Positions 72-46,339 of a DNA stretch of 64,000 bases are shown here, piece by piece (positions within the stretch are counted from its first letter, which is position 1; each line of letters begins with the position of its first letter). This DNA is from Escherichia coli (GTDB taxonomy: Bacteria; Pseudomonadota; Gammaproteobacteria; Enterobacterales; Enterobacteriaceae): the NCBI RefSeq assembly GCF_003790525.1, contig NZ_CP033635.1; one strand, given 5' to 3'. A program made the translations under genes and the position numbers. Below the pieces are notes generated by a model. That model did not search any database and was not told the origin of the DNA. It saw nothing but the letters and a program-made list of their open reading frames with translations.

Positions 72-191
72 ATGCCTGGCAGTTCCCTACTCTCGCATGG
101 GGAGACCCCACACTACCATCGGCGCTACGGCGTTTCACTTCTGAGTTCGGCATGGGGTCAGGTGGGACCACCGCGCTAAGGCCGCCAGGCA
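72..191 (-). rRNA. rrfB: 5S ribosomal RNA
   Basis: 120 nt whose reverse complement matches E. coli 5S rRNA (tgcctggcggc...gggaactgccaggcat); operon assigned as rrnB because murI lies immediately upstream. Confidence 0.93.
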
Positions 192-283
192 AATTCTGTT
201 TCATCAGACCGCTTCTGCGTTCTGATTTAATCTGTATCAGGCTGAAAATCTTCTCTCTTCCGCCAAAACATCTTCGGCGTTGT

Positions 284-3187
<2,904 letters not shown>

Positions 3188-3380
3188 TCACAACCCGAAG
3201 ATGTTTCTTTCGATTCGTCATCGTGTTGCGAAAATTTGAGAGACTCACGAACAACTTTCGTTGTTCAGTGTTTCAATTTTCAGCTTGATCCAGATTTTTA
3301 AAGAGCAAATATCTCAAACGTCACCCGAAGATGAGTTTTGAGATATTAAGGCAGGTGACTTTCACTCACAAACCAGCAAG

Positions 3381-3456
3381 TGGCGTCCCCTAGGGGATTC
3401 GAACCCCTGTTACCGCCGTGAAAGGGCGGTGTCCTGGGCCTCTAGACGAAGGGGAC
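3381..3456 (-). tRNA. gltT: tRNA-Glu in the 16S-23S spacer
   Basis: 76 nt; reverse complement is gtccccttcgtctagaggcccaggacaccgccctttcacggcggtaacaggggttcgaatcccctaggggacgcca, with CCA end. Confidence 0.93.
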
Positions 3457-3541
3457 GTATCAGTCTGCTTCGCAAGACGCCTTGCTTTTCACTTTCTATC
3501 AGACAATCTGTGTGAGCACTTCAAAGAACGCTTCTTTAAGG

Positions 3542-5083
<1,542 letters not shown>

Positions 5084-5254
5084 AAAAGTTTGATGCTCAA
5101 AGAATTAAACTTCGTAATGAATTACGTGTTCACTCTTGAGACTTGGTATTCATTTTTCGTCTTGCGACGTTAAGAATCCGTATCTTCGAGTGCCCACACA
5201 GATTGTCTGATAAATTGTTAAAGAGCAGTGCCGCTTCGCTTTTTCTCAGCGGCG

Positions 5255-5295
5255 CGGGGTGTGCATAATACGCTTTCCCGCTACAGAGTCAAGCA
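5255..5295 (-). promoter_or_regulatory. rrnB P2 promoter
   Basis: On the minus strand, -35 ttgact (5287-5292) and -10 tattatgc (5263-5270); matches the recalled rrnB P2 sequence. Confidence 0.75.
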
Positions 5296-5369
5296 TTTTT
5301 TTGCTTTTCTCTGTTGAGATTCTCAGGAGAACCCCGCTGACCCGGCGGCGTGTTTGCCGTTGTTCCGTG

Positions 5370-5435
5370 TCAGTGGTGGCGCATTATAGGGAGTTATTCC
5401 GGCCTGACAAGAGGAAATTTAAAATAATTTTCTGA
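5370..5435 (-). promoter_or_regulatory. rrnB P1 promoter with AT-rich UP element
   Basis: On the minus strand, -35 ttgtca (5405-5410), -10 tataat (5383-5388), GC-rich discriminator, and UP element agaaaattattttaaatttcct (5412-5433). FIS sites would lie further upstream, overlapping the murI 3' end. Confidence 0.85.
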
Positions 5436-5455
5436 CCGCGCAACATTCAACCAAA

Positions 5456-6313
5456 TCAGCCTAAAACTGCCAGTTTTTCGAGCGTTTCGAAGCCGTAACG
5501 CTGTAAAACGGGCAATAATTGTTCAGCTTCTGGCGTCATTGCCATACAAAAGGCAATATTCGCATCGGCAGATTTTGCATCCGGGGCTTCATGTTCTAAC
5601 AGCCAGGCCGTTCGGCGAGCAATCGCTGCGCCAGAATCCACCAGCCGGGTTCCCTCTGGCAGCACCTGTAACAGTTCTTCTTGTAGTAGAGGGAAATGGG
5701 TACACCCCAGTACAACGGTATCTGGCGGCTCTTTCATTCTTAACCACGGACGCAAGATACGTTTTAGCGCATCCAGAGAAACATCTTCGCCATGCAGCTT
5801 CGCTTCAGCCAACTCAACCATCTCTGCCGAACCCAGCATTTCTATCTGGCATTCATTAGCGAAACGCGCGATCAGCTCATGAGTATAAGAACGTTTAACT
5901 GTTCCGCGGGTTGCCAGTAATCCGACAATGCCATTTGCCGTCAGACGTGCAGCAGGTTTAATCGCCGGCACGACACCAACAACCGGGAAGTCGAACTTTT
6001 CGCGTAATGCAGGAAGTGAAACGGTACTGGCAGTGTTGCAAGCGACCACAGCCAGCGCAAGGGGATAACGTTTTTGCACTGCGGTGACAATTGCCACCAC
6101 TCGCTCAACAATAAACGCTTCGCTTTTTTCGCCATACGGGAAAGCGACGTTATCGAAAGCATAAATGTAATGGAGATCCGGTAAGAGATGCCGGATCTCG
6201 TCATAGACCGACAACCCACCGACGCCGGAGTCAAACACCAGCACGGTGGGACGTGGTTCAGAAGGTGTAGCTGCCAGACAAGGTGTATTCCCGTCCTGCA
6301 GTTTGGTAGCCAT
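5456..6313 (-). CDS. murI: glutamate racemase
   Basis: ORF 5456..6325; product [33 protein letters not shown]... recognised as MurI; start placed at the K-12 methionine (285 aa). Confidence 0.93.
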
Positions 6314-8102: not shown

Positions 8103-8342
8103 TGTAAAGCATCCACAATAGAAGAAGGATGCCGCAGGTTTCATCAATATTACGCGATGATGAGAACCAGATGCGACGTTAGCCGGCAGGTCTTCGGGCT
8201 TGGAGGGGTATCTAAGATACTAAGAGATGATGACTTCCCACCGGATGGCAGTGTCCGCATAACGCAATCATCGCACCTTTCCTTACCGCTGCGCGTCAGC
8301 TCCAGATTCGCACTGGATTCCCTATTAACTCACAGGACCGGC
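8103..8342 (-). promoter_or_regulatory. btuB 5' leader containing the cobalamin (B12) riboswitch
   Basis: Minus-strand leader gccggtcctgtgagttaatagggaatccagtgcgaatctggagctgacgcgcagcggtaagg... matches the recalled btuB leader upstream of the btuB start. Confidence 0.8.
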
Positions 8343-8470
8343 AAGTGGATGCTACAGGTTGTAACAAGTTACTGTCCAGACGTAGCTCACAAATAGGAAT
8401 TCATCAAGATCTGGACATCTGATGAGCAATCCCTACAATCGCCGCGTACTTTAATTTTTCAGGATACATC

Positions 8471-9571
8471 ATGACCCCCGAACACCTTCCAACAGAACAG
8501 TATGAAGCGCAGTTAGCCGAAAAAGTGGTACGTTTGCAAAGTATGATGGCACCGTTTTCTGACCTGGTTCCGGAAGTGTTTCGCTCGCCGGTCAGTCATT
8601 ACCGGATGCGTGCGGAGTTCCGCATCTGGCACGATGGCGATGACCTGTATCACATCATTTTCGATCAACAAACCAAAAGCCGCATCCGCGTGGATAGCTT
8701 CCCCGCCGCCAGTGAACTTATCAACCAGTTGATGACGGCGATGATTGCGGGTGTGCGTAATAATCCCGTTCTGCGCCACAAGTTGTTCCAGATTGATTAC
8801 CTCACCACGCTGAGTAATCAGGCGGTGGTTTCCCTGCTGTACCATAAGAAGCTGGATGATGAGTGGCGTCAGGAAGCGGAAGCCCTGCGCGACGCACTGC
8901 GAGCGCAGAATCTGAATGTGCATCTGATTGGTCGGGCAACGAAAACCAAAATCGAGCTGGATCAAGATTACATCGATGAACGTCTGCCGGTCGCAGGGAA
9001 AGAGATGATCTACCGTCAGGTAGAAAACAGCTTTACCCAGCCGAACGCGGCGATGAATATTCAGATGCTGGAATGGGCGCTGGACGTAACCAAAGGCTCA
9101 AAAGGCGATTTACTGGAGCTGTACTGCGGCAACGGTAACTTTTCATTAGCACTGGCGCGCAATTTTGATCGGGTATTAGCCACCGAAATCGCTAAGCCGT
9201 CGGTCGCTGCCGCGCAATACAACATTGCCGCTAACCATATTGATAACGTACAAATTATTCGTATGGCGGCAGAAGAATTTACTCAGGCGATGAATGGCGT
9301 ACGCGAGTTTAACCGCCTGCAAGGGATCGATTTAAAGAGTTATCAGTGCGAAACCATTTTTGTCGACCCACCACGCAGCGGTCTGGACGGTGAAACCGAG
9401 AAAATGGTGCAGGCGTATCCACGTATTCTGTATATCTCCTGCAATCCGGAAACGTTATGCAAGAATCTGGAAACATTAAGTCAGACGCACAAGGTCGAAC
9501 GTCTGGCTCTGTTTGATCAGTTCCCCTACACGCACCATATGGAGTGCGGCGTATTACTGACCGCGAAGTAA
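8471..9571 (+). CDS. trmA: tRNA (uracil54-C5)-methyltransferase
   Basis: 366-aa ORF; product [19 protein letters not shown]... recognised as TrmA. Confidence 0.95.
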
Positions 9572-18099: not shown

Positions 18100-18347
18100 A
18101 CCTTTGGTGTTACTCGAGGCGATTTTTTAACATTCCCATAAGTTACGCTTATTTAAAGCGTCGTGAATTTAATGGCGTAAATTCCTGCTATTTATTCGTT
18201 TGCTGAAGCGATTTCGCAGCATTTGACGTCACCGCTTTTACGTGGCTTTATAAAAGACGACGAAAAGCAAAGCCCGAGCATATTCGCGCCAATGCGACGT
18301 GAAGGATACAGGGCTATCAAACGATAAGATGGGGTGTCTGGGGTAAT

Positions 18348-20999
18348 ATGAACGAACAATATTCCGCATTGCGTAGTAATGTCAGTATGCTCGGCAAAGT
18401 GCTGGGAGAAACCATCAAGGATGCGTTAGGAGAACACATTCTTGAACGCGTAGAAACTATCCGTAAGTTGTCCAAATCTTCACGCGCTGGCAATGATGCT
18501 AACCGCCAGGAGTTGCTCACCACCTTACAAAATTTGTCGAACGACGAGCTGCTGCCCGTTGCGCGTGCGTTTAGTCAGTTTCTGAACCTGGCCAACACCG
18601 CCGAGCAATACCACAGCATTTCGCCGAAAGGCGAAGCTGCCAGCAACCCGGAAGTGATCGCCCGCACCCTGCGCAAACTGAAAAACCAGCCGGAACTGAG
18701 CGAAGACACCATAAAAAAAGCAGTGGAATCGCTGTCGCTGGAACTGGTCCTCACGGCTCACCCAACCGAAATTACCCGTCGTACACTGATCCACAAAATG
18801 GTGGAAGTGAACGCCTGCTTAAAACAGCTCGATAACAAAGATATCGCTGACTACGAACACAACCAGCTGATGCGCCGCCTGCGCCAGTTGATCGCCCAGT
18901 CATGGCATACCGATGAAATCCGTAAGCTGCGTCCAAGCCCGGTAGATGAAGCCAAATGGGGCTTTGCCGTAGTAGAAAACAGCCTGTGGCAAGGCGTACC
19001 GAATTACCTGCGCGAACTGAACGAACAACTGGAAGAGAATCTCGGCTACAAACTGCCCGTCGAATTTGTTCCGGTCCGTTTTACCTCGTGGATGGGCGGT
19101 GACCGCGACGGCAACCCGAACGTCACTGCCGATATCACCCGCCACGTCCTGCTGCTCAGTCGCTGGAAAGCCACCGATCTGTTCCTGAAAGATATTCAGG
19201 TGCTGGTTTCTGAACTGTCGATGGTTGAAGCGACCCCTGAACTGCTGGCGCTGGTTGGCGAAGAAGGTGCCGCAGAACCGTATCGCTATCTGATGAAAAA
19301 CCTGCGTTCTCGCCTGATGGCGACACAGGCATGGCTGGAAGCGCGCCTGAAAGGCGAAGAACTGCCAAAACCAGAAGGCCTGCTGACACAAAACGAAGAA
19401 CTGTGGGAACCGCTCTACGCTTGCTACCAGTCACTTCAGGCGTGTGGCATGGGTATTATCGCCAACGGCGATCTGCTCGACACCCTGCGCCGCGTGAAAT
19501 GTTTCGGCGTACCGCTGGTCCGTATTGATATCCGTCAGGAGAGCACCCGCCATACCGAAGCGCTGGGCGAGCTGACCCGCTACCTCGGTATCGGCGACTA
19601 CGAAAGCTGGTCAGAGGCCGACAAACAGGCGTTCCTGATCCGCGAACTGAACTCCAAACGTCCGCTTCTGCCGCGCAACTGGCAACCAAGCGCCGAAACG
19701 CGCGAAGTGCTCGATACCTGCCAGGTGATTGCCGAAGCACCGCAAGGTTCCATTGCCGCCTACGTGATCTCGATGGCAAAAACGCCGTCCGACGTACTGG
19801 CTGTCCACCTGCTGCTGAAAGAAGCGGGTATCGGGTTTGCAATGCCGGTTGCTCCGCTGTTTGAAACCCTCGATGACCTGAACAACGCCAACGATGTCAT
19901 GACCCAGCTGCTCAATATCGACTGGTATCGCGGCCTGATTCAGGGCAAACAGATGGTGATGATTGGCTATTCCGACTCAGCAAAAGATGCGGGCGTGATG
20001 GCAGCTTCCTGGGCGCAATATCAGGCACAGGATGCATTAATCAAAACCTGCGAAAAAGCGGGTATTGAGCTGACGTTGTTCCACGGTCGCGGCGGTTCCA
20101 TTGGTCGTGGCGGCGCACCTGCTCATGCGGCGCTGCTGTCACAACCGCCAGGTAGCCTGAAAGGTGGCCTGCGCGTGACTGAACAGGGCGAGATGATCCG
20201 CTTTAAATATGGTCTGCCAGAAATCACCGTCAGCAGCCTGTCGCTGTACACCGGGGCGATTCTGGAAGCCAACCTGCTGCCACCGCCTGAGCCGAAAGAG
20301 AGCTGGCGTCGCATTATGGATGAACTGTCAGTCATCTCCTGCGATCTCTACCGTGGCTACGTACGTGAAAACAAAGATTTTGTGCCTTACTTCCGCTCCG
20401 CTACGCCGGAACAAGAATTGGGCAAACTGCCGTTGGGTTCACGTCCGGCGAAACGTCGCCCAACCGGCGGCGTCGAGTCGCTGCGCGCCATTCCGTGGAT
20501 TTTTGCCTGGACGCAAAACCGCCTGATGCTCCCCGCCTGGCTGGGTGCAGGTACGGCGCTGCAAAAAGTGGTCGAAGATGGCAAGCAGAGCGAACTGGAA
20601 GCCATGTGCCGCGATTGGCCATTCTTCTCGACGCGTCTCGGCATGCTGGAGATGGTCTTCGCCAAAGCAGACCTGTGGCTGGCGGAATACTATGATCAAC
20701 GTCTGGTAGACAAAGCACTGTGGCCGTTAGGTAAAGAGTTACGCAATCTGCAAGAAGAAGACATCAAAGTGGTGCTGGCGATTGCCAACGATTCCCATCT
20801 GATGGCCGATCTGCCGTGGATTGCAGAGTCTATTCAGCTACGGAATATTTACACCGACCCGCTGAACGTATTGCAGGCCGAGTTGCTGCACCGCTCCCGC
20901 CAGGCAGAAAAAGAAGGCCATGAGCCGGATCCTCGCGTCGAGCAGGCGTTAATGGTCACTATTGCCGGGATTGCGGCAGGTATGCGTAATACCGGCTAA
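18348..20999 (+). CDS. ppc: phosphoenolpyruvate carboxylase
   Basis: 883-aa ORF; [41 protein letters not shown]... and C-terminal ...MRNTG. Confidence 0.96.
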
Positions 21000-39145: not shown

Positions 39146-40705
39146 TTACTTGATATCTTTCACGCGCATACCGTTGATCTGTTCATCCGTGATGGTGTTA
39201 CCCGCTTTGAAGTAATCAACCACGGCGTGATAAACGTAATAACCGCCCGTTGTGTTACGCGCTTTCCCTTCGGTAAAGGCGGTAAAACCATCTCCACCAT
39301 CAGCAAGGAAACTCTGAGTAGCAATGTGGTAAATCGTCGCATCTTCAATGGGTTTGCCATTCAGAGTCAGCGTGATTACCCGCTGACCAACCGGCTTACT
39401 GCTGTCGTACTTCATTTCCAGGCCTTTCGATACCTGTAAAACGCCATTACTCAAACTTGCGCCGTGTTCCATCAAACTGCGTAATTGTTTACCCGTGAGA
39501 TCCATCGTCACCAGTTCGTTGGGGAACGGGAAGGTACTGATGACGCCACCCATCGTAATTGCACCCGCCGGGATCTCATTGCGAATCCCGCCAGAGTTGG
39601 TTAACGCCAACTGGGTATTTTTACCCGCCGCTGCCAGCAAAGCGTCTGCCGCCAGGTTCCCGAGAGAAGCTGATTCACCATAGGCACGTTTTAGTTCAAC
39701 CGGCGATTGCGCCACCGTTTGTTGCACGACTTCATCCAGCTTTTTGTTCCAACTATCAATCACCTGTTTCGTTTGCGGATCGGGCTTCCACTCATCGGCG
39801 TAAAGGGTTTTAAGCTCGAAGTTTTTCACCGTAAAAGTGTGCGGCTTCTCTTTGTAGTCGAGAACCAGTTTACCGACATCAATCCCGCCGCTGTCAGTGG
39901 AGAGGATTAACGTATTGCCGACTTTAATCGGTTCCGGCGTACCCACATGTGCATGCCCGGTGATCAAAATATCCAACCCTTTCACCTGACTTGCCGTCTG
40001 AATATCTTTATCCAGTGCGCGACGCACATCCGTGCCTCCCATACTGGACTGGCGGGCCGGAACACCTTCGTGGATCAGGGCGACGGTTAGATCAACCTTG
40101 CCTTTGAGTTCATCGATATAACGTTGTAGCCATTTAATTTCATCACGCGCCTCAATACCCACTCGCGTTGCCGCAGATACCGTATCATTAAAGGCAAATA
40201 CACCGTGCAAACCAATCACGCCAATTTTCACGCCGTCTTTTTCAATGATGGTATAGGGCTTATCCCAGAATGATTTACTGCTGTTCTGATAAAAAACATT
40301 ACCCTGCACAATCGGGAATTTTGCCTGACTCAACTGTAATAACGTATTGTCCCAGCCGTGATCAAATTCATGATTACCTATAGTGACCGCATCGAATGGC
40401 ATGGTATTCATAATATCGATAATCGCCTTGCCTTTAGTCAGGCTGCTGATATACGGTCCGGTAAAATAGTCACCCGCATCAAAAAACCAGGTCGCTTTGT
40501 TTTTAGCTTTTTCTTGTTTAACAAGCGTAGTGATATTTGCCCAGCCGCCAATATCCCGTTTACCGTCAGCAATCCACGGCACTTTATAAGGCTCTACATG
40601 TGCATGGAGGTCGTTGGTATAAATGATGGTGACATCTTTGGCGCAAGCCCAAAACGGCAGTGTTAATGCGATACCCGCAGCAAGCATTTTAATTTTCATA
40701 AACAA
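39146..40705 (-). CDS. secreted bifunctional metallophosphatase / 5'-nucleotidase (UshA/CpdB family), paralogue 1
   Basis: 519-aa ORF with N-terminal signal peptide, calcineurin-like motifs ([23 protein letters not shown]) and a C-terminal 5'-nucleotidase-type domain. Absent from this position in K-12 as I recall it. Confidence 0.85.
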
Positions 40706-40831: not shown

Positions 40832-41959
40832 ATGTCAAATCTGTTTGCGATTAATGTCTGTAAAACGTTCGGTTGTCGAAATTTGGGATTGGCCTCATCG
40901 GAAGATTACAGTTGGCCAGACTATAAACTGGGTTTTCCGGCACTGCACTGCCAGGCATGCGGAAGTTACCCCCCTTTGTTTGATGAACAACAATTTCGTG
41001 ACTGGTTGTCAGTTCACATGACTGCGTGTGCCATAGAAACAGGGCATTTTTGTCCATCATGCTATTGTAAAGAAAAGATTTTTTATGGCCACAACCCGCA
41101 GGGAACACAACGCGTTCAATGCCGTTCATGCAAAAAAGTCTGGACTCCGAAACAGCAGCCAGCAAGAGAAATTACGTATCCCCAGTCCATTGAAACCGTT
41201 CAACTGTTCATGCCCTTTCAAGGAGCCAGCGCAGTACAAAAGCTCTATGTTTTAGTCAGTCTTGACGCCACTCGTGGCAACATCCTTCATCTCTCCACGA
41301 ATTATACGCAACATCAGACAGGAGACAGTCTGCGGTACAGTTACAGAGGCAATACAGAACCAACTGAGCACCATAGCGATATTGTGCAGAGGGTAGATAT
41401 GCGTGAAGCGCAATTCTTGCGCCGGAGCCAGTTCGATGAAATTCAGTATGGCAGTGCTGTGCTCAAGCGCAACGGCAAGGGAGCCATACTACGCCCGGTT
41501 ATCACGGCACACGGGCATTTCAGAATACTGAAAATCCGCTTTCCACATGTCAAAACGCATATCATTTCACACGAATGTTTTCTGAGAGGCGCAATTATTA
41601 CAGCCTGGGCAGATCAGTTCCGCCAACAACAAGGCGAACTTTGGTTCGTAGAAGAAGAAATCAGCGACCGTAACGCTGATATTCCCTGGCATTTTCAGGG
41701 AACGACATACCATGGTTGGTGGCAAAATCAGTGGCAACGCTGGGGGCAGGGGAATAACAGCAAGATGGTCTGCCTGCTCACAGGAGTCTCCTTAGAAAGG
41801 GGCGCAAATGTTTCTCTGGCAACCAGTCGTTGCTTTATCACATGGCTGACAGACCAACACGACTTTACCCAAAGCGCGTTATTATCCGCAGGTCGCGTAA
41901 CGAAAATGCTGACCTCACTGGCGTTAAAATACAATGAATCGCTCACTCCATCTTGTTAG
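40832..41959 (+). CDS. hypothetical Cys-rich protein with N-terminal zinc-ribbon-like motifs
   Basis: 375-aa ORF divergent from paralogue 1; first 100 residues contain C-x4-C, C-x2-C, CPSC-x-C and C-x2-C spacings; remainder unassignable by eye. Confidence 0.55.
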   Translation: MSNLFAINVCKTFGCRNLGLASSEDYSWPDYKLGFPALHCQACGSYPPLFDEQQFRDWLSVHMTACAIETGHFCPSCYCKEKIFYGHNPQGTQRVQCRSCKKVWTPKQQPAREITYPQSIETVQLFMPFQGASAVQKLYVLVSLDATRGNILHLSTNYTQHQTGDSLRYSYRGNTEPTEHHSDIVQRVDMREAQFLRRSQFDEIQYGSAVLKRNGKGAILRPVITAHGHFRILKIRFPHVKTHIISHECFLRGAIITAWADQFRQQQGELWFVEEEISDRNADIPWHFQGTTYHGWWQNQWQRWGQGNNSKMVCLLTGVSLERGANVSLATSRCFITWLTDQHDFTQSALLSAGRVTKMLTSLALKYNESLTPSC

Positions 41960-42188: not shown

Positions 42189-43741
42189 ATGATGAGAACT
42201 GTATTTACGACTTTATCAGTCATATTCAGCGTGATGTTTTCTCACAGTATACTAGCTCAGGACGTTACTATTTATTATACGAATGATATTCACGCACATG
42301 TCAATCCGGCAAAAATTCCCGCTGTTGATAAGAACAGACTTGTAGGTGGTATGGCTAATATTGCAGGCATCGTTAATGAAGCGAAGAAAAAAAACAAAGA
42401 TGTCTTTTTCTTTGATGCAGGCGACTATTTTACCGGTCCGTATATCAGTACCCTGACCAAAGGTGAAGCTATTATTGATATCATGAACACCATGCCCTTT
42501 GATGCGGTGTCCGTTGGTAATCACGAGTTCGATCACGGCGTGCCCAATATGGTATCTCAGTTATCAAAAGCAAAATTCCCCATTCTGCTGGGAAATATTT
42601 ACTACACCGATACAAATAAACCAGTTTGGGATCATCCGTGGACCATTATCGAAAAAGATGGTTTAAAGATTGGTGTGATTGGATTGCATGGTGCATTCGC
42701 TTTCTATGATACAGTCGCGGCAAAAGCACGTGAAGGCGTAGAAGCCAGAGACGAAATTAAATATTTAAATAAAGCACTTGCAGAATTAAAAGGTAAAGTC
42801 GACATTACCGTTTTGCTAATTCACGAAGGTGTTCCGGCGCGTCAATCAAGCTTTGGTAGTAAAGATGTGGAGCGGCTACTACAGGCAGATATTGAGACAG
42901 CTAAAAAAGTGAATGGTGTTGATGTCTTAATTACCGGTCACGCACATGTCGGAACACCGCAACCAATAAAAGTTAATAACACATTAATTGTATCTACCGA
43001 TGCATACGGCACCGACATCGGAAAACTTGTGCTTGATTACAATCCGAAAACAAAGAAAATTGATAGTTATAATGGTGAGTTAATCACCATCTTTGCAGAT
43101 CAATTTAAACCTGACACCATCGTTAAAATACTATCGATAAATGGAGCGTAAAGCTTAACAAAATAACACAGGAAGTTGTCGGCCATTCTCCCGTAGTTTT
43201 AACACGTGAGTATGGCAGTTCTTCTTCTACCGGTAATCTTATTCTGGATGCAATGATGGAAAAAACACCTGATGCCATTGCCGGATTTCAAAATAGCGGT
43301 GGGATGCGAGCTGATTTTCCTAAAGGTGATATCACACTGGGAGATGTTATTAGCACATTCCCCTTTAATAATGACCTCATCGAGATGGATTTGACGGGCC
43401 GCGATCTCAAATCGTTGATGACGCATGCAACCAATCTAACTAACGGTGTGTTACAGGTTTCAAAAAGCGTTGCGGTTGTCTATGACAGCAAAAAACCACT
43501 CAACCAACGGTTAATCTCTTTCACCATTAACGGCAAACCCGTGGAAGATAATCAAACATATCGTATTGCCACGCACTCCTTTTGTGCCAGTGGTGGTGAC
43601 GGTTTTGAAGCATTTTTGAATGGAAAAAATGTGAAGACGATACCGGGAACAACCTCGGCGGAATCTATCATCGATTATTTCAAAAATCATAAACCTGTCA
43701 CCCCAGACTTAACTAAACGAGTCATGGACGTCGCCAAATAA
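42189..43741 (+). pseudogene. frameshifted UshA-family 5'-nucleotidase, paralogue 2
   Basis: ORF 42189..43151 (320 aa; signal peptide and metallophosphatase motifs) stops at taa 43149-43151; homology to paralogues 1 and 3 continues in the +2 frame from about 43127 through ORF 43253..43741. The frame break lies near 43128-43140. Confidence 0.75.
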
Positions 43742-43775: not shown

Positions 43776-45401
43776 ATGCGAATGAAAACAGTGCAGCGTA
43801 CTTTACTTGCCGCAACATTGCTGACTATTTTTTCGGTCTCAGTCATGGCGCAGGATGTCACGATTATTTATACAAATGATCTTCACGCTCATGTGGATTC
43901 TTATAAAGTGCCGTATATCGCAGACGGAAAACGCGACATTGGCGGCTTTGCCAATATATCTACTTTAGTAAAACAGGAGAAAGCGAAAAATAAAGCCACC
44001 TTTTATTTTGATGCTGGAGACTATTTCACCGGCCCTTATATCAGCAGTCTGACAAAGGGCGAAGCAATAATTGACATTATGAATACCATGCCTTTTGACG
44101 CAGTATCAATCGGTAATCATGAGTTTGACCATGGCTGGGATAATGCCCTGCGACAATTAAGCAAAGCGAATTTTCCTGTTTTATTGGGCAATGTTTATCA
44201 TAAAGAGAGTGAGAACCCCTTCTGGAACAAGCCCTACACCATCCTGGAAAAAGATGGCATCAAGATTGGTATTATTGGGCTACACGGCGTATTTGCATTT
44301 AATGATACGGTCTCGGAGCTCTCTCTCCAGGGACTCGATAATGACAATAATAACCGCTTTGATAAATCTTCCGAGACCCTTAAGAATCAGGGGATTGAAG
44401 CACGTGATGAAGTGAAGTATTTGCAGCATTATATCGACGAGTTACGTGATAAGGTTGACCTCACTGTGGCGCTGGTTCATGAAGGCGTTCCGGCGCGTCA
44501 GTCCAGCATTGGCAATACAGATGTTAGACGCGCTCTTGATAAAGATATTCAAACCGCTAGCAAGGTGAAAGGATTGGATATTCTGATTACCGGGCATGCC
44601 CACGTCGGAACGCCAGAACCAATCAAAGTCGGCAACACCTTAATCCTTTCAACTGATAGTGGAGGTATCGATATTGGTAAATTAGTCCTTGATGTCAACC
44701 CTACAGCTCGTACCCATAAAATGAAGAGCTTTGAGCTGAAAACAGTTTATGCCGATGAATGGATACCCGATCCAACGACACAAAAAGTTATCAATGGCTG
44801 GAATAAAAAACTGGCGGATATTGTACGCCAACCAGTGGGTGAATCATCGATTGCATTAACTCGCGCCTATGGTGAGTCATCGCAACTAGGCAACCTGTTT
44901 ACCGATGCAATGCTTGTCGCTGCTCCGACTGCACAGATTGCATTGATAAACTCCGGCAGCTTACGTGCGGATATAAATGCAGGCACGATTACCTTTGGCG
45001 ACATTACCAGTACATTCCCCTTCAAGAATGAACTTACTGAAATGGATCTCAGCGGTAAGGATCTGCGTAACCTACTGGAACACGGGGCATCGCTTACCAA
45101 TGGCATCCTGCAAATGTCAAAAGGCGCAGAAATGCGCTATACCCCGCAGAAACCAGTAGGTCAGCGCATAGTATCTTTTAAAATTAATGGTGAAGAGATC
45201 GTTGATACGAATATTTACCATGTTGCAACAACGACTTTCCTTGCACTGGGGGGCGATGGTTTTCTGGCATTCAAAGAAGGGAAAAATGTTCAGGTCCGCG
45301 CCGGAAATAACATGTCCGATGTCGTGATCGATTATTTGAAGAAAGGCCACAAGATTACGCCTGCACAGGTAAATGAAATGCGGGTGGACGTTAGCAAATA
45401 A
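43776..45401 (+). CDS. secreted bifunctional metallophosphatase / 5'-nucleotidase (UshA/CpdB family), paralogue 3
   Basis: 541-aa ORF; signal peptide (…SVMAQD), NDLHAH / GDYFTG / GNHEFDHG motifs; closely similar to paralogue 1 apart from a ~20-aa insertion. Confidence 0.85.
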   Translation: MRMKTVQRTLLAATLLTIFSVSVMAQDVTIIYTNDLHAHVDSYKVPYIADGKRDIGGFANISTLVKQEKAKNKATFYFDAGDYFTGPYISSLTKGEAIIDIMNTMPFDAVSIGNHEFDHGWDNALRQLSKANFPVLLGNVYHKESENPFWNKPYTILEKDGIKIGIIGLHGVFAFNDTVSELSLQGLDNDNNNRFDKSSETLKNQGIEARDEVKYLQHYIDELRDKVDLTVALVHEGVPARQSSIGNTDVRRALDKDIQTASKVKGLDILITGHAHVGTPEPIKVGNTLILSTDSGGIDIGKLVLDVNPTARTHKMKSFELKTVYADEWIPDPTTQKVINGWNKKLADIVRQPVGESSIALTRAYGESSQLGNLFTDAMLVAAPTAQIALINSGSLRADINAGTITFGDITSTFPFKNELTEMDLSGKDLRNLLEHGASLTNGILQMSKGAEMRYTPQKPVGQRIVSFKINGEEIVDTNIYHVATTTFLALGGDGFLAFKEGKNVQVRAGNNMSDVVIDYLKKGHKITPAQVNEMRVDVSK

Positions 45402-45413
45402 TAAAAAAATTAT

Positions 45414-45447
45414 AATGCCATTCATTCACTGAATGGCATTATTTTCT
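45414..45447 (+). terminator. intrinsic terminator after paralogue 3
   Basis: Hairpin aatgccattca ... tgaatggcatt followed by attttc. Confidence 0.65.
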
Positions 45448-45478: not shown

Positions 45479-46339
45479 ATGTGTATAAAAAAGCACGGGA
45501 TAGCTTTATCGATTCTATTAATACCTTGCATTGGAAACGCTCAGGAAATTAAAAGTGAGGAAGGCTGGTTACATCAAAGCTTGAATGTCATTGGTCGCAC
45601 AGACTCTCGCTTTGGCCCAAGGCTGACTAACGACCTCTACCCTGAATATACTGTAGCAGGAAGAAAAGACTGGTTTGATTTTTATGGTTATGTTGATCTA
45701 CCAAAATTCTTTGGCGTCGGCAGTCACTATGATGTTGGGATCTGGGATGAGGGCTCACCACTATTTACGGAAATAGAACCTCGGTTTTCCATTGACAAAT
45801 TGACCGGATTAAATCTTGCGTTCGGCCCTTTTAAAGAATGGTTCATTGCAAACAACTATGTCTATGATATGGGTGACAACCAGTCATCCCGGCAAAGTAC
45901 ATGGTATATGGGGCTTGGTACAGATATCGACACGGGTCTACCAATTAAGCTTTCTGCCAATATATACGCCAAGTATCAGTGGCAAAACTATGGTGCCGCT
46001 AATGAAAATGAATGGGACGGATATCGATTCAAAATAAAATATAGCATTCCTCTTACCCATTTATTCGGAGGGCGATTGGTATACAATAGTTTTACTAACT
46101 TTGATTTTGGCTCCGATCTTGCGGACAAATCACACAATAATAAACGAACCAGTAATGCTATTGCTTCAAGCCATATCCTTTCCCTGCTATATGAACACTG
46201 GAAATTTGCATTTACACTACGTTATTTTCACAACGGTGGACAATGGAATGCTGGGGAGAAAGTTAACTTCGGAGATGGTCCATTTGAATTAAAAAACACA
46301 GGATGGGGAACCTATACTACTATTGGTTATCAATTTTAA
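45479..46339 (+). CDS. Tsx-family nucleoside-specific outer-membrane channel
   Basis: 286-aa ORF with signal peptide; strong similarity to E. coli Tsx ([69 protein letters not shown]-terminal ...GYQF). Confidence 0.88.

Follow-up and report, generated by a model that had tools for sequence, protein, structure and literature searches.

The window analysed here, a 64,000-nt stretch of the Escherichia coli contig NZ_CP033635.1 (assembly GCF_003790525.1) whose positions serve as coordinates throughout, is part of the E. coli chromosome and contains, between metF and metL, an accessory island made of three paralogous nucleotidase genes, a gene for a 375-aa hypothetical protein and a gene for a Tsx-like channel. 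This island corresponds to the region denoted 'GR 31 metL..metF', common to ExPEC model strains, in which the middle nucleotidase gene is ORF 331, and for which a role in the processing and transport of nucleosides was proposed without experimental evidence (PMC12928451). The first paralogue is intact and lies on the reverse strand (39146..40705; 519 aa as an open reading frame, 517 aa as annotated), and the third one, also intact, is found on the forward strand (43782..45401; 539 aa), each of them being 56% identical to the middle gene. Within its metallophosphatase domain, the third paralogue has about 20 inserted residues (LQGLDNDNNNRFDKSSETLKN, in the region 44300-44370) that are absent from the other two. 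Its start lies 40 nt past the normal stop of the middle gene, and since no terminator-like site is present between both genes, they are probably co-transcribed. A terminator-like hairpin, with a 13-bp stem and T-rich tails on both strands, follows the third paralogue (45412..45442), and then comes the Tsx-like nucleoside channel gene (45479..46339, forward strand), an intact ORF of 286 aa ending in …GYQF.

The middle of the three metallophosphatase/5'-nucleotidase paralogues lacks one base in the window. An earlier note on this DNA had claimed that the gene is broken by a single-nucleotide indel at about 43128-43140, and that the homology to its paralogues resumes in another frame through position 43741. 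Alignment with intact orthologues confirmed a lesion of this kind, specifically a deletion of 1 nt, but placed it at 43124/43125 on the forward strand, 4 nt upstream of that interval. At this point the AF57 and CFT073 orthologues read GTT-CAA-AAT and the window reads GTTAAAAT, with no other change at the break. The missing C is the first base of codon Gln312 (CAA) and occupies position 934 of the gene (ΔC934); it is flanked by TT and AAAA and is outside any homopolymer run of C. The start annotated by PGAP is the second ATG, at 42192, with an alternative ATG at 42189. Counted from the former, the N-terminal fragment (42192..43151, forward strand) spans 319 codons, of which 311 are native and the rest specify the out-of-frame tail KILSINGA, followed by the stop at 43149-43151; the ORF 42189..43151 thus has FADQFKPDTIVKILSINGA as its C-terminal end. 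The second frame reads NTIDKWSVKLNKITQEVVGHSPVVLTREYGSS and is open until the stop at 43739-43741. This C-terminal remnant (43127..43741, forward strand; 204 codons plus the stop) is equivalent to residues 313-516 of the intact protein and encodes the 5_nucleotid_C domain. Its first own start codon is found at 43253, and the mechanical ORF that begins there (43253..43741, forward strand; 162 aa, or 161 aa from 43256) lacks a signal peptide and is listed by gene callers as a separate '5'-nucleotidase C-terminal domain' protein.

The resumption of homology in a second frame was fully borne out. The intact 516-aa protein WP_001261171.1 is matched with 100% identity by residues 1-311 when the frame of 42192 is read and by residues 313-516 when that of 43127 is read, an agreement of both halves with one intact orthologue that is far beyond chance. 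The restored continuous ORF has a length of 516 aa from the PGAP start, and not of about 520 aa as given in the note. Small ORFs on the opposite strand under the break, such as 43123..43278 (51 aa), were discarded as chance ORFs inside a coding region.

Of 5426 complete E. coli genomes, 658 carry the middle gene, in every case as a single chromosomal copy, and its annotated examples are a single CDS of 1551 nt. The comparison with orthologous loci of other strains, advised in the note, likewise yielded intact single ORFs of 1551 nt in the orthologues examined. When a 201-nt probe across the break was used, all 60 best matches spanned 202 nt, and therefore carry the extra base, which was present in every row inspected (the 60 best plus 30 spread rows). 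In addition, a 51-mer centered on the junction, which seeds a megablast match only if the junction itself is present, matched none of the 5426 complete genomes, indicating that none of the 658 gene-carrying genomes has this junction. The same gene at the same locus in E. coli SMS-3-5, AF57 and their relatives encodes WP_001261171.1, annotated as 'bifunctional metallophosphatase/5'-nucleotidase', and every base of its 1551 nt matches the window except for the missing C, so that a product of 516 aa is truncated to 319 aa in the window allele.

The region 30000-54000 of the window is effectively 100% identical to SMS-3-5 (NC_010498.1) and to about a dozen complete genomes, the SMS-3-5 span being one base longer than the query. 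Alignment of the whole 64-kb window with SMS-3-5 gave 15 mismatches and 2 single-base gaps, all of them within 975-5831 (rRNA operon, murI) except for the deletion at 43124/43125; the frameshift is, therefore, the only difference from SMS-3-5 over the other 58 kb. With regard to the remaining differences, the 23S/ITS/16S rRNA operon contains the cluster of 15 SNPs together with a 1-nt indel (at 2644), which probably stem from differences between rrn copies or from gene conversion among them, and the murI SNP at 5831 (A vs. G) is synonymous and is not shared by the closest complete genomes. The possibility that the window is merely SMS-3-5 minus one base was ruled out by these rRNA-operon and murI differences, which indicate that it represents a distinct natural relative of this strain.

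The note had also contemplated a sequencing or assembly error, that is, that the strain truly has an intact 516-aa gene (reading GTTCAAAAT) from which base calling or consensus polishing dropped the C. Such a reading finds some ground in the absence of the junction from all the 5426 complete genomes, in the otherwise complete identity of the closest relatives of the window over 58 kb, and in other public assemblies in which this gene presents single-base indels that are possibly errors, one of them with split neighboring genes as well. However, an exact-protein look-up in a collection of 15 billion proteins recovered the exact 319-aa product together with the out-of-frame residues at its end. 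It is encoded on three contigs of Logan assemblies from separate runs, two of which are SRR25608274 (a 37.9-kb contig) and SRR25608277, and so the same deletion recurs in assemblies made independently from three read sets. Two of the Logan contigs (L005, 12,960 nt retrieved, and L006, 2,686 nt) match the window with 100% identity, also at the deletion, and the longer one differs nowhere else from the window or from SMS-3-5 over its 12,960 nt, from which it follows that the reads were accurate. The three runs have adjacent accession numbers and may come from the window's own strain or project, and the evidence consists of assembled contigs, thus attesting reproducibility across read sets, not across laboratories or platforms. 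Further points against an error are that the missing C has TT before it and AAAA after it and is not part of a C homopolymer, that the sequence around the deletion shows neither a Dam nor a Dcm motif, and that the only other indel of the window relative to SMS-3-5 sits in a multi-copy rRNA operon. Given the recurrence of the deletion in the Logan contigs, a real, lineage-private mutation is much likelier than an assembly error: we assign a probability of roughly 85% to the deletion being a real mutation of a sub-lineage, and consider an artefact unlikely. A literature search yielded no relevant paper for the CFT073 locus tags or the PDB code, and nothing for the SRR accessions.

Taken as a real mutation, the lesion combines relatives with an uninterrupted ORF, two sides that are intact in two frames, and reproduction in further assemblies, as is characteristic of a frameshift pseudogene. 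It is an ordinary, strain-private one, in a gene and an island that were already annotated and described.

The consequences of the truncation can be considered in the light of the domain composition of the intact protein, which presents a Pfam Metallophos domain (PF00149) at residues 26-253 and a 5_nucleotid_C domain (PF02872) at residues 329-475. This is the same architecture as that of the periplasmic E. coli UshA (UDP-sugar hydrolase/5'-nucleotidase), of which the middle gene is only a distant relative: the intact protein scored 165.5 bits against the NCBIfam UshA equivalog model NF007109, far from its cut-off of 600, and was below the cut-off of every other equivalog model too. On the basis of this score, the middle gene is not a UshA orthologue; from sequence comparison, its product is to be regarded as a member of the superfamily whose name of nucleotidase comes from annotation only. 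The best match among solved structures was PDB 3IVD/3IVE ('Nucleotidase', a full-length chain of 509 residues with the same two-domain architecture), with E = 2.6e-190 over residues 21-507 of the intact protein, UshA, CD73 and NadN being more distant PDB relatives. This structure, which we take to be that of CFT073 c4898 crystallised with uridine or cytidine, appears to be far closer to the first paralogue of the island than to the middle gene, and thus represents a paralogue of the broken gene, not the broken gene itself. The comparison of the SMS-3-5 and CFT073 alleles of the middle gene revealed 29 synonymous and 12 non-synonymous differences (dN/dS = 0.11), which indicates that the gene is normally functional and under purifying selection.

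The retention of the signal peptide and of the metallophosphatase motifs by the N-terminal fragment, as stated in the note, was confirmed. The N-terminus of the truncated product resembles a signal peptide (…SHSILA followed by QDV), and the truncated ORF retains the metal-binding and catalytic motifs DIHAH32, GD77, GNHE109 and GHAH249, the mature product having a computed mass of about 32.5 kDa. In contrast, in the window the 5_nucleotid_C domain is not on the same polypeptide, since it is encoded in the other frame, past the stop at 43149-43151. In the UshA/CD73 family, the C-terminal domain binds the substrate and must rotate onto the dimetal site of the N-terminal domain, as seen in the UshA structures 1USH and 1HP1. 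Without this substrate-binding domain, which has to close onto the dimetal site, the truncated product is probably inactive, so that the nucleotidase function has most probably been lost. The assembly of a split enzyme in the periplasm from both fragments is implausible, because no start codon precedes 43253 in the C-terminal remnant, which is also devoid of a signal peptide.

The proposed course of events can be outlined as follows. A recent, lineage-private loss of the C of Gln312 would have inactivated the middle periplasmic metallophosphatase/5'-nucleotidase gene, in such a way that translation from 42192 would produce 311 native residues and eight out-of-frame ones before ending at 43149-43151, and the 5'-nucleotidase C-terminal domain would be left stranded in the other frame, with neither a start codon nor a signal peptide of its own. 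The exported 32.5-kDa N-terminal domain, if stable, would be devoid of its substrate-binding partner, with the predicted loss of the nucleotidase function, a loss that may be covered by the two intact paralogues. Moreover, about 590 nt of newly untranslated mRNA may lower the expression of the third paralogue by means of Rho-dependent polarity.

Other disrupted alleles of the middle gene were found through a look-up of the 161-aa C-terminal ORF. Three of them involve single bases, namely the insertion of a T at nt 1028 (SRR32364842), the deletion of a T at nt 1032 (SRR33366302) and the deletion of an A at nt 861 (ERZ27269483), and some of these single-base lesions in other assemblies may be assembly errors. 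In addition, an IS1 end abuts nt 864 at the start of a contig of GCA_003292405.1 (positions 1-99), with 12 similar places, and an IS1 is found at the same position, about nt 864, in the complete genome EC17CM2 (NZ_CP190349.1; positions 1190-1887 of the retrieved locus), where PGAP annotates the gene as a pseudogene. The lineage with IS1 at about nt 864 belongs to the same clade as the window and comprises one complete genome and at least 13 draft contigs. The same gene has thus been inactivated in the same clade by an IS1 insertion at about nt 864 and by a 1-nt deletion at nt 934, and the former is an event independent of the deletion in the window. Altogether, at least five independent lesions are on record (ΔC934, IS1 at about 864, +T1028, ΔT1032 and ΔA861), and all of them spare the exported metallophosphatase domain. 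As a separate observation, in the Logan contig of SRR32364842 (positions 74-4647) three genes are split, namely those of the hypothetical protein (280 aa), of the middle nucleotidase (348 + 161 aa) and of the third paralogue (291 + 268 aa), which points either to an error-prone assembly or to wholesale decay of the island in that strain.

The collection of lesions bears on the possibility that the truncated gene has a retained or altered function, in which the exported, stand-alone metallophosphatase domain would be a stable and less specific phosphoesterase and the repeated breakage would reflect selection instead of neutral decay. The retention of the signal peptide and of all metal-binding and catalytic motifs is compatible with this idea, and so is the grouping of several independent breaks within nt 861-1032, a segment that comes after the one coding for the catalytic domain. 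Furthermore, the chains of PDB 3GVE (341 aa) and 3JYF (339 aa) align only with the N-terminal metallophosphatase region. The size of these chains, of about 340 residues, fits with the ability of the N-terminal domain to fold alone, and on this basis the truncated domain may still be made. However, a substrate of the UshA/CD73 type is bound by the C-terminal domain, which has to rotate onto the dimetal site, and the break in the window precedes the end of the inter-domain region and adds a foreign tail of 8 residues. The clustering of the breaks is, in turn, biased by the search with the 161-aa C-terminal ORF, which appears only when there is a break upstream of it, so that the recorded positions necessarily tend to lie upstream. 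A retained function was consequently regarded as quite unlikely. A recurrent, possibly adaptive, inactivation of the middle paralogue in the SMS-3-5-like clade was considered very unlikely; if true, it could mean that selection in some niche, and not neutral decay, has favored either the absence of the nucleotidase or an isolated phosphoesterase domain. The picture that emerges is that of a dispensable accessory gene with a paralogous back-up, and redundancy among the paralogues is suggested by the fact that the middle copy has been lost repeatedly.

Finally, we considered the synthesis of a full-length product by recoding at the GTTAAAAT junction, through either programmed -1 ribosomal frameshifting or slippage during transcription. 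In principle, the frame would be recovered (…VKNTID…) if tRNA-Lys slipped by one base (-1) on AAA. This reading was rejected as having a negligible chance of being correct, because there is no slippery heptamer at the shift site and the two-frame layout is not shared by the orthologues, the junction being absent from all 658 gene-carrying genomes and the orthologues examined being single-frame. A scan of the ORF for X_XXY_YYZ heptamers found none at 43110-43151, the existing ones being restricted to 42389-42764, far upstream, with the nearest in-frame one at 42764, and a run of four A is too short for transcriptional slippage.

Considering the deletion as a genuine mutation, the appropriate annotation for 42192..43151 plus 43253..43741 is a single frameshifted pseudogene of WP_001261171.1 in place of two proteins, and the lesion can serve as a convenient one-base marker of this sub-lineage within the SMS-3-5-like clade. 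It also represents one more loss in a putative nucleotide-scavenging accessory island, made of three UshA-like enzymes and a Tsx-like channel, and its importance beyond annotation is small.

Two other genes of the island deserve a brief comment. The first, flanked by the divergent nucleotidase genes, is a conserved member of the island and encodes the Cys-rich hypothetical protein of 375 aa (40832..41959, forward strand; WP_000067197.1). Scans with Pfam and NCBIfam identified no Pfam domain in this protein, and a sub-threshold resemblance to an IS1 InsA-type zinc ribbon was noticed at residues 74-136 (E = 4e-4 and 20 bits with NCBIfam; E = 0.04 with Pfam); this protein may correspond to a domesticated or decayed transposase-derived gene, or to a regulator. 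The second is the Tsx-like gene, which PGAP flags in SMS-3-5 and AF57 as a pseudogene with a 'missing C-terminus' (846 nt; 18241-19086 in locus L003 and 8293-9138 in locus L001), and the 286-aa version of which is annotated as intact in CFT073. The ORF in the window, at a locus identical to the flagged ones, scored 491.8 bits against a cut-off of 311 for the Tsx subfamily model, and the pseudogene flag looks like an annotation artefact.
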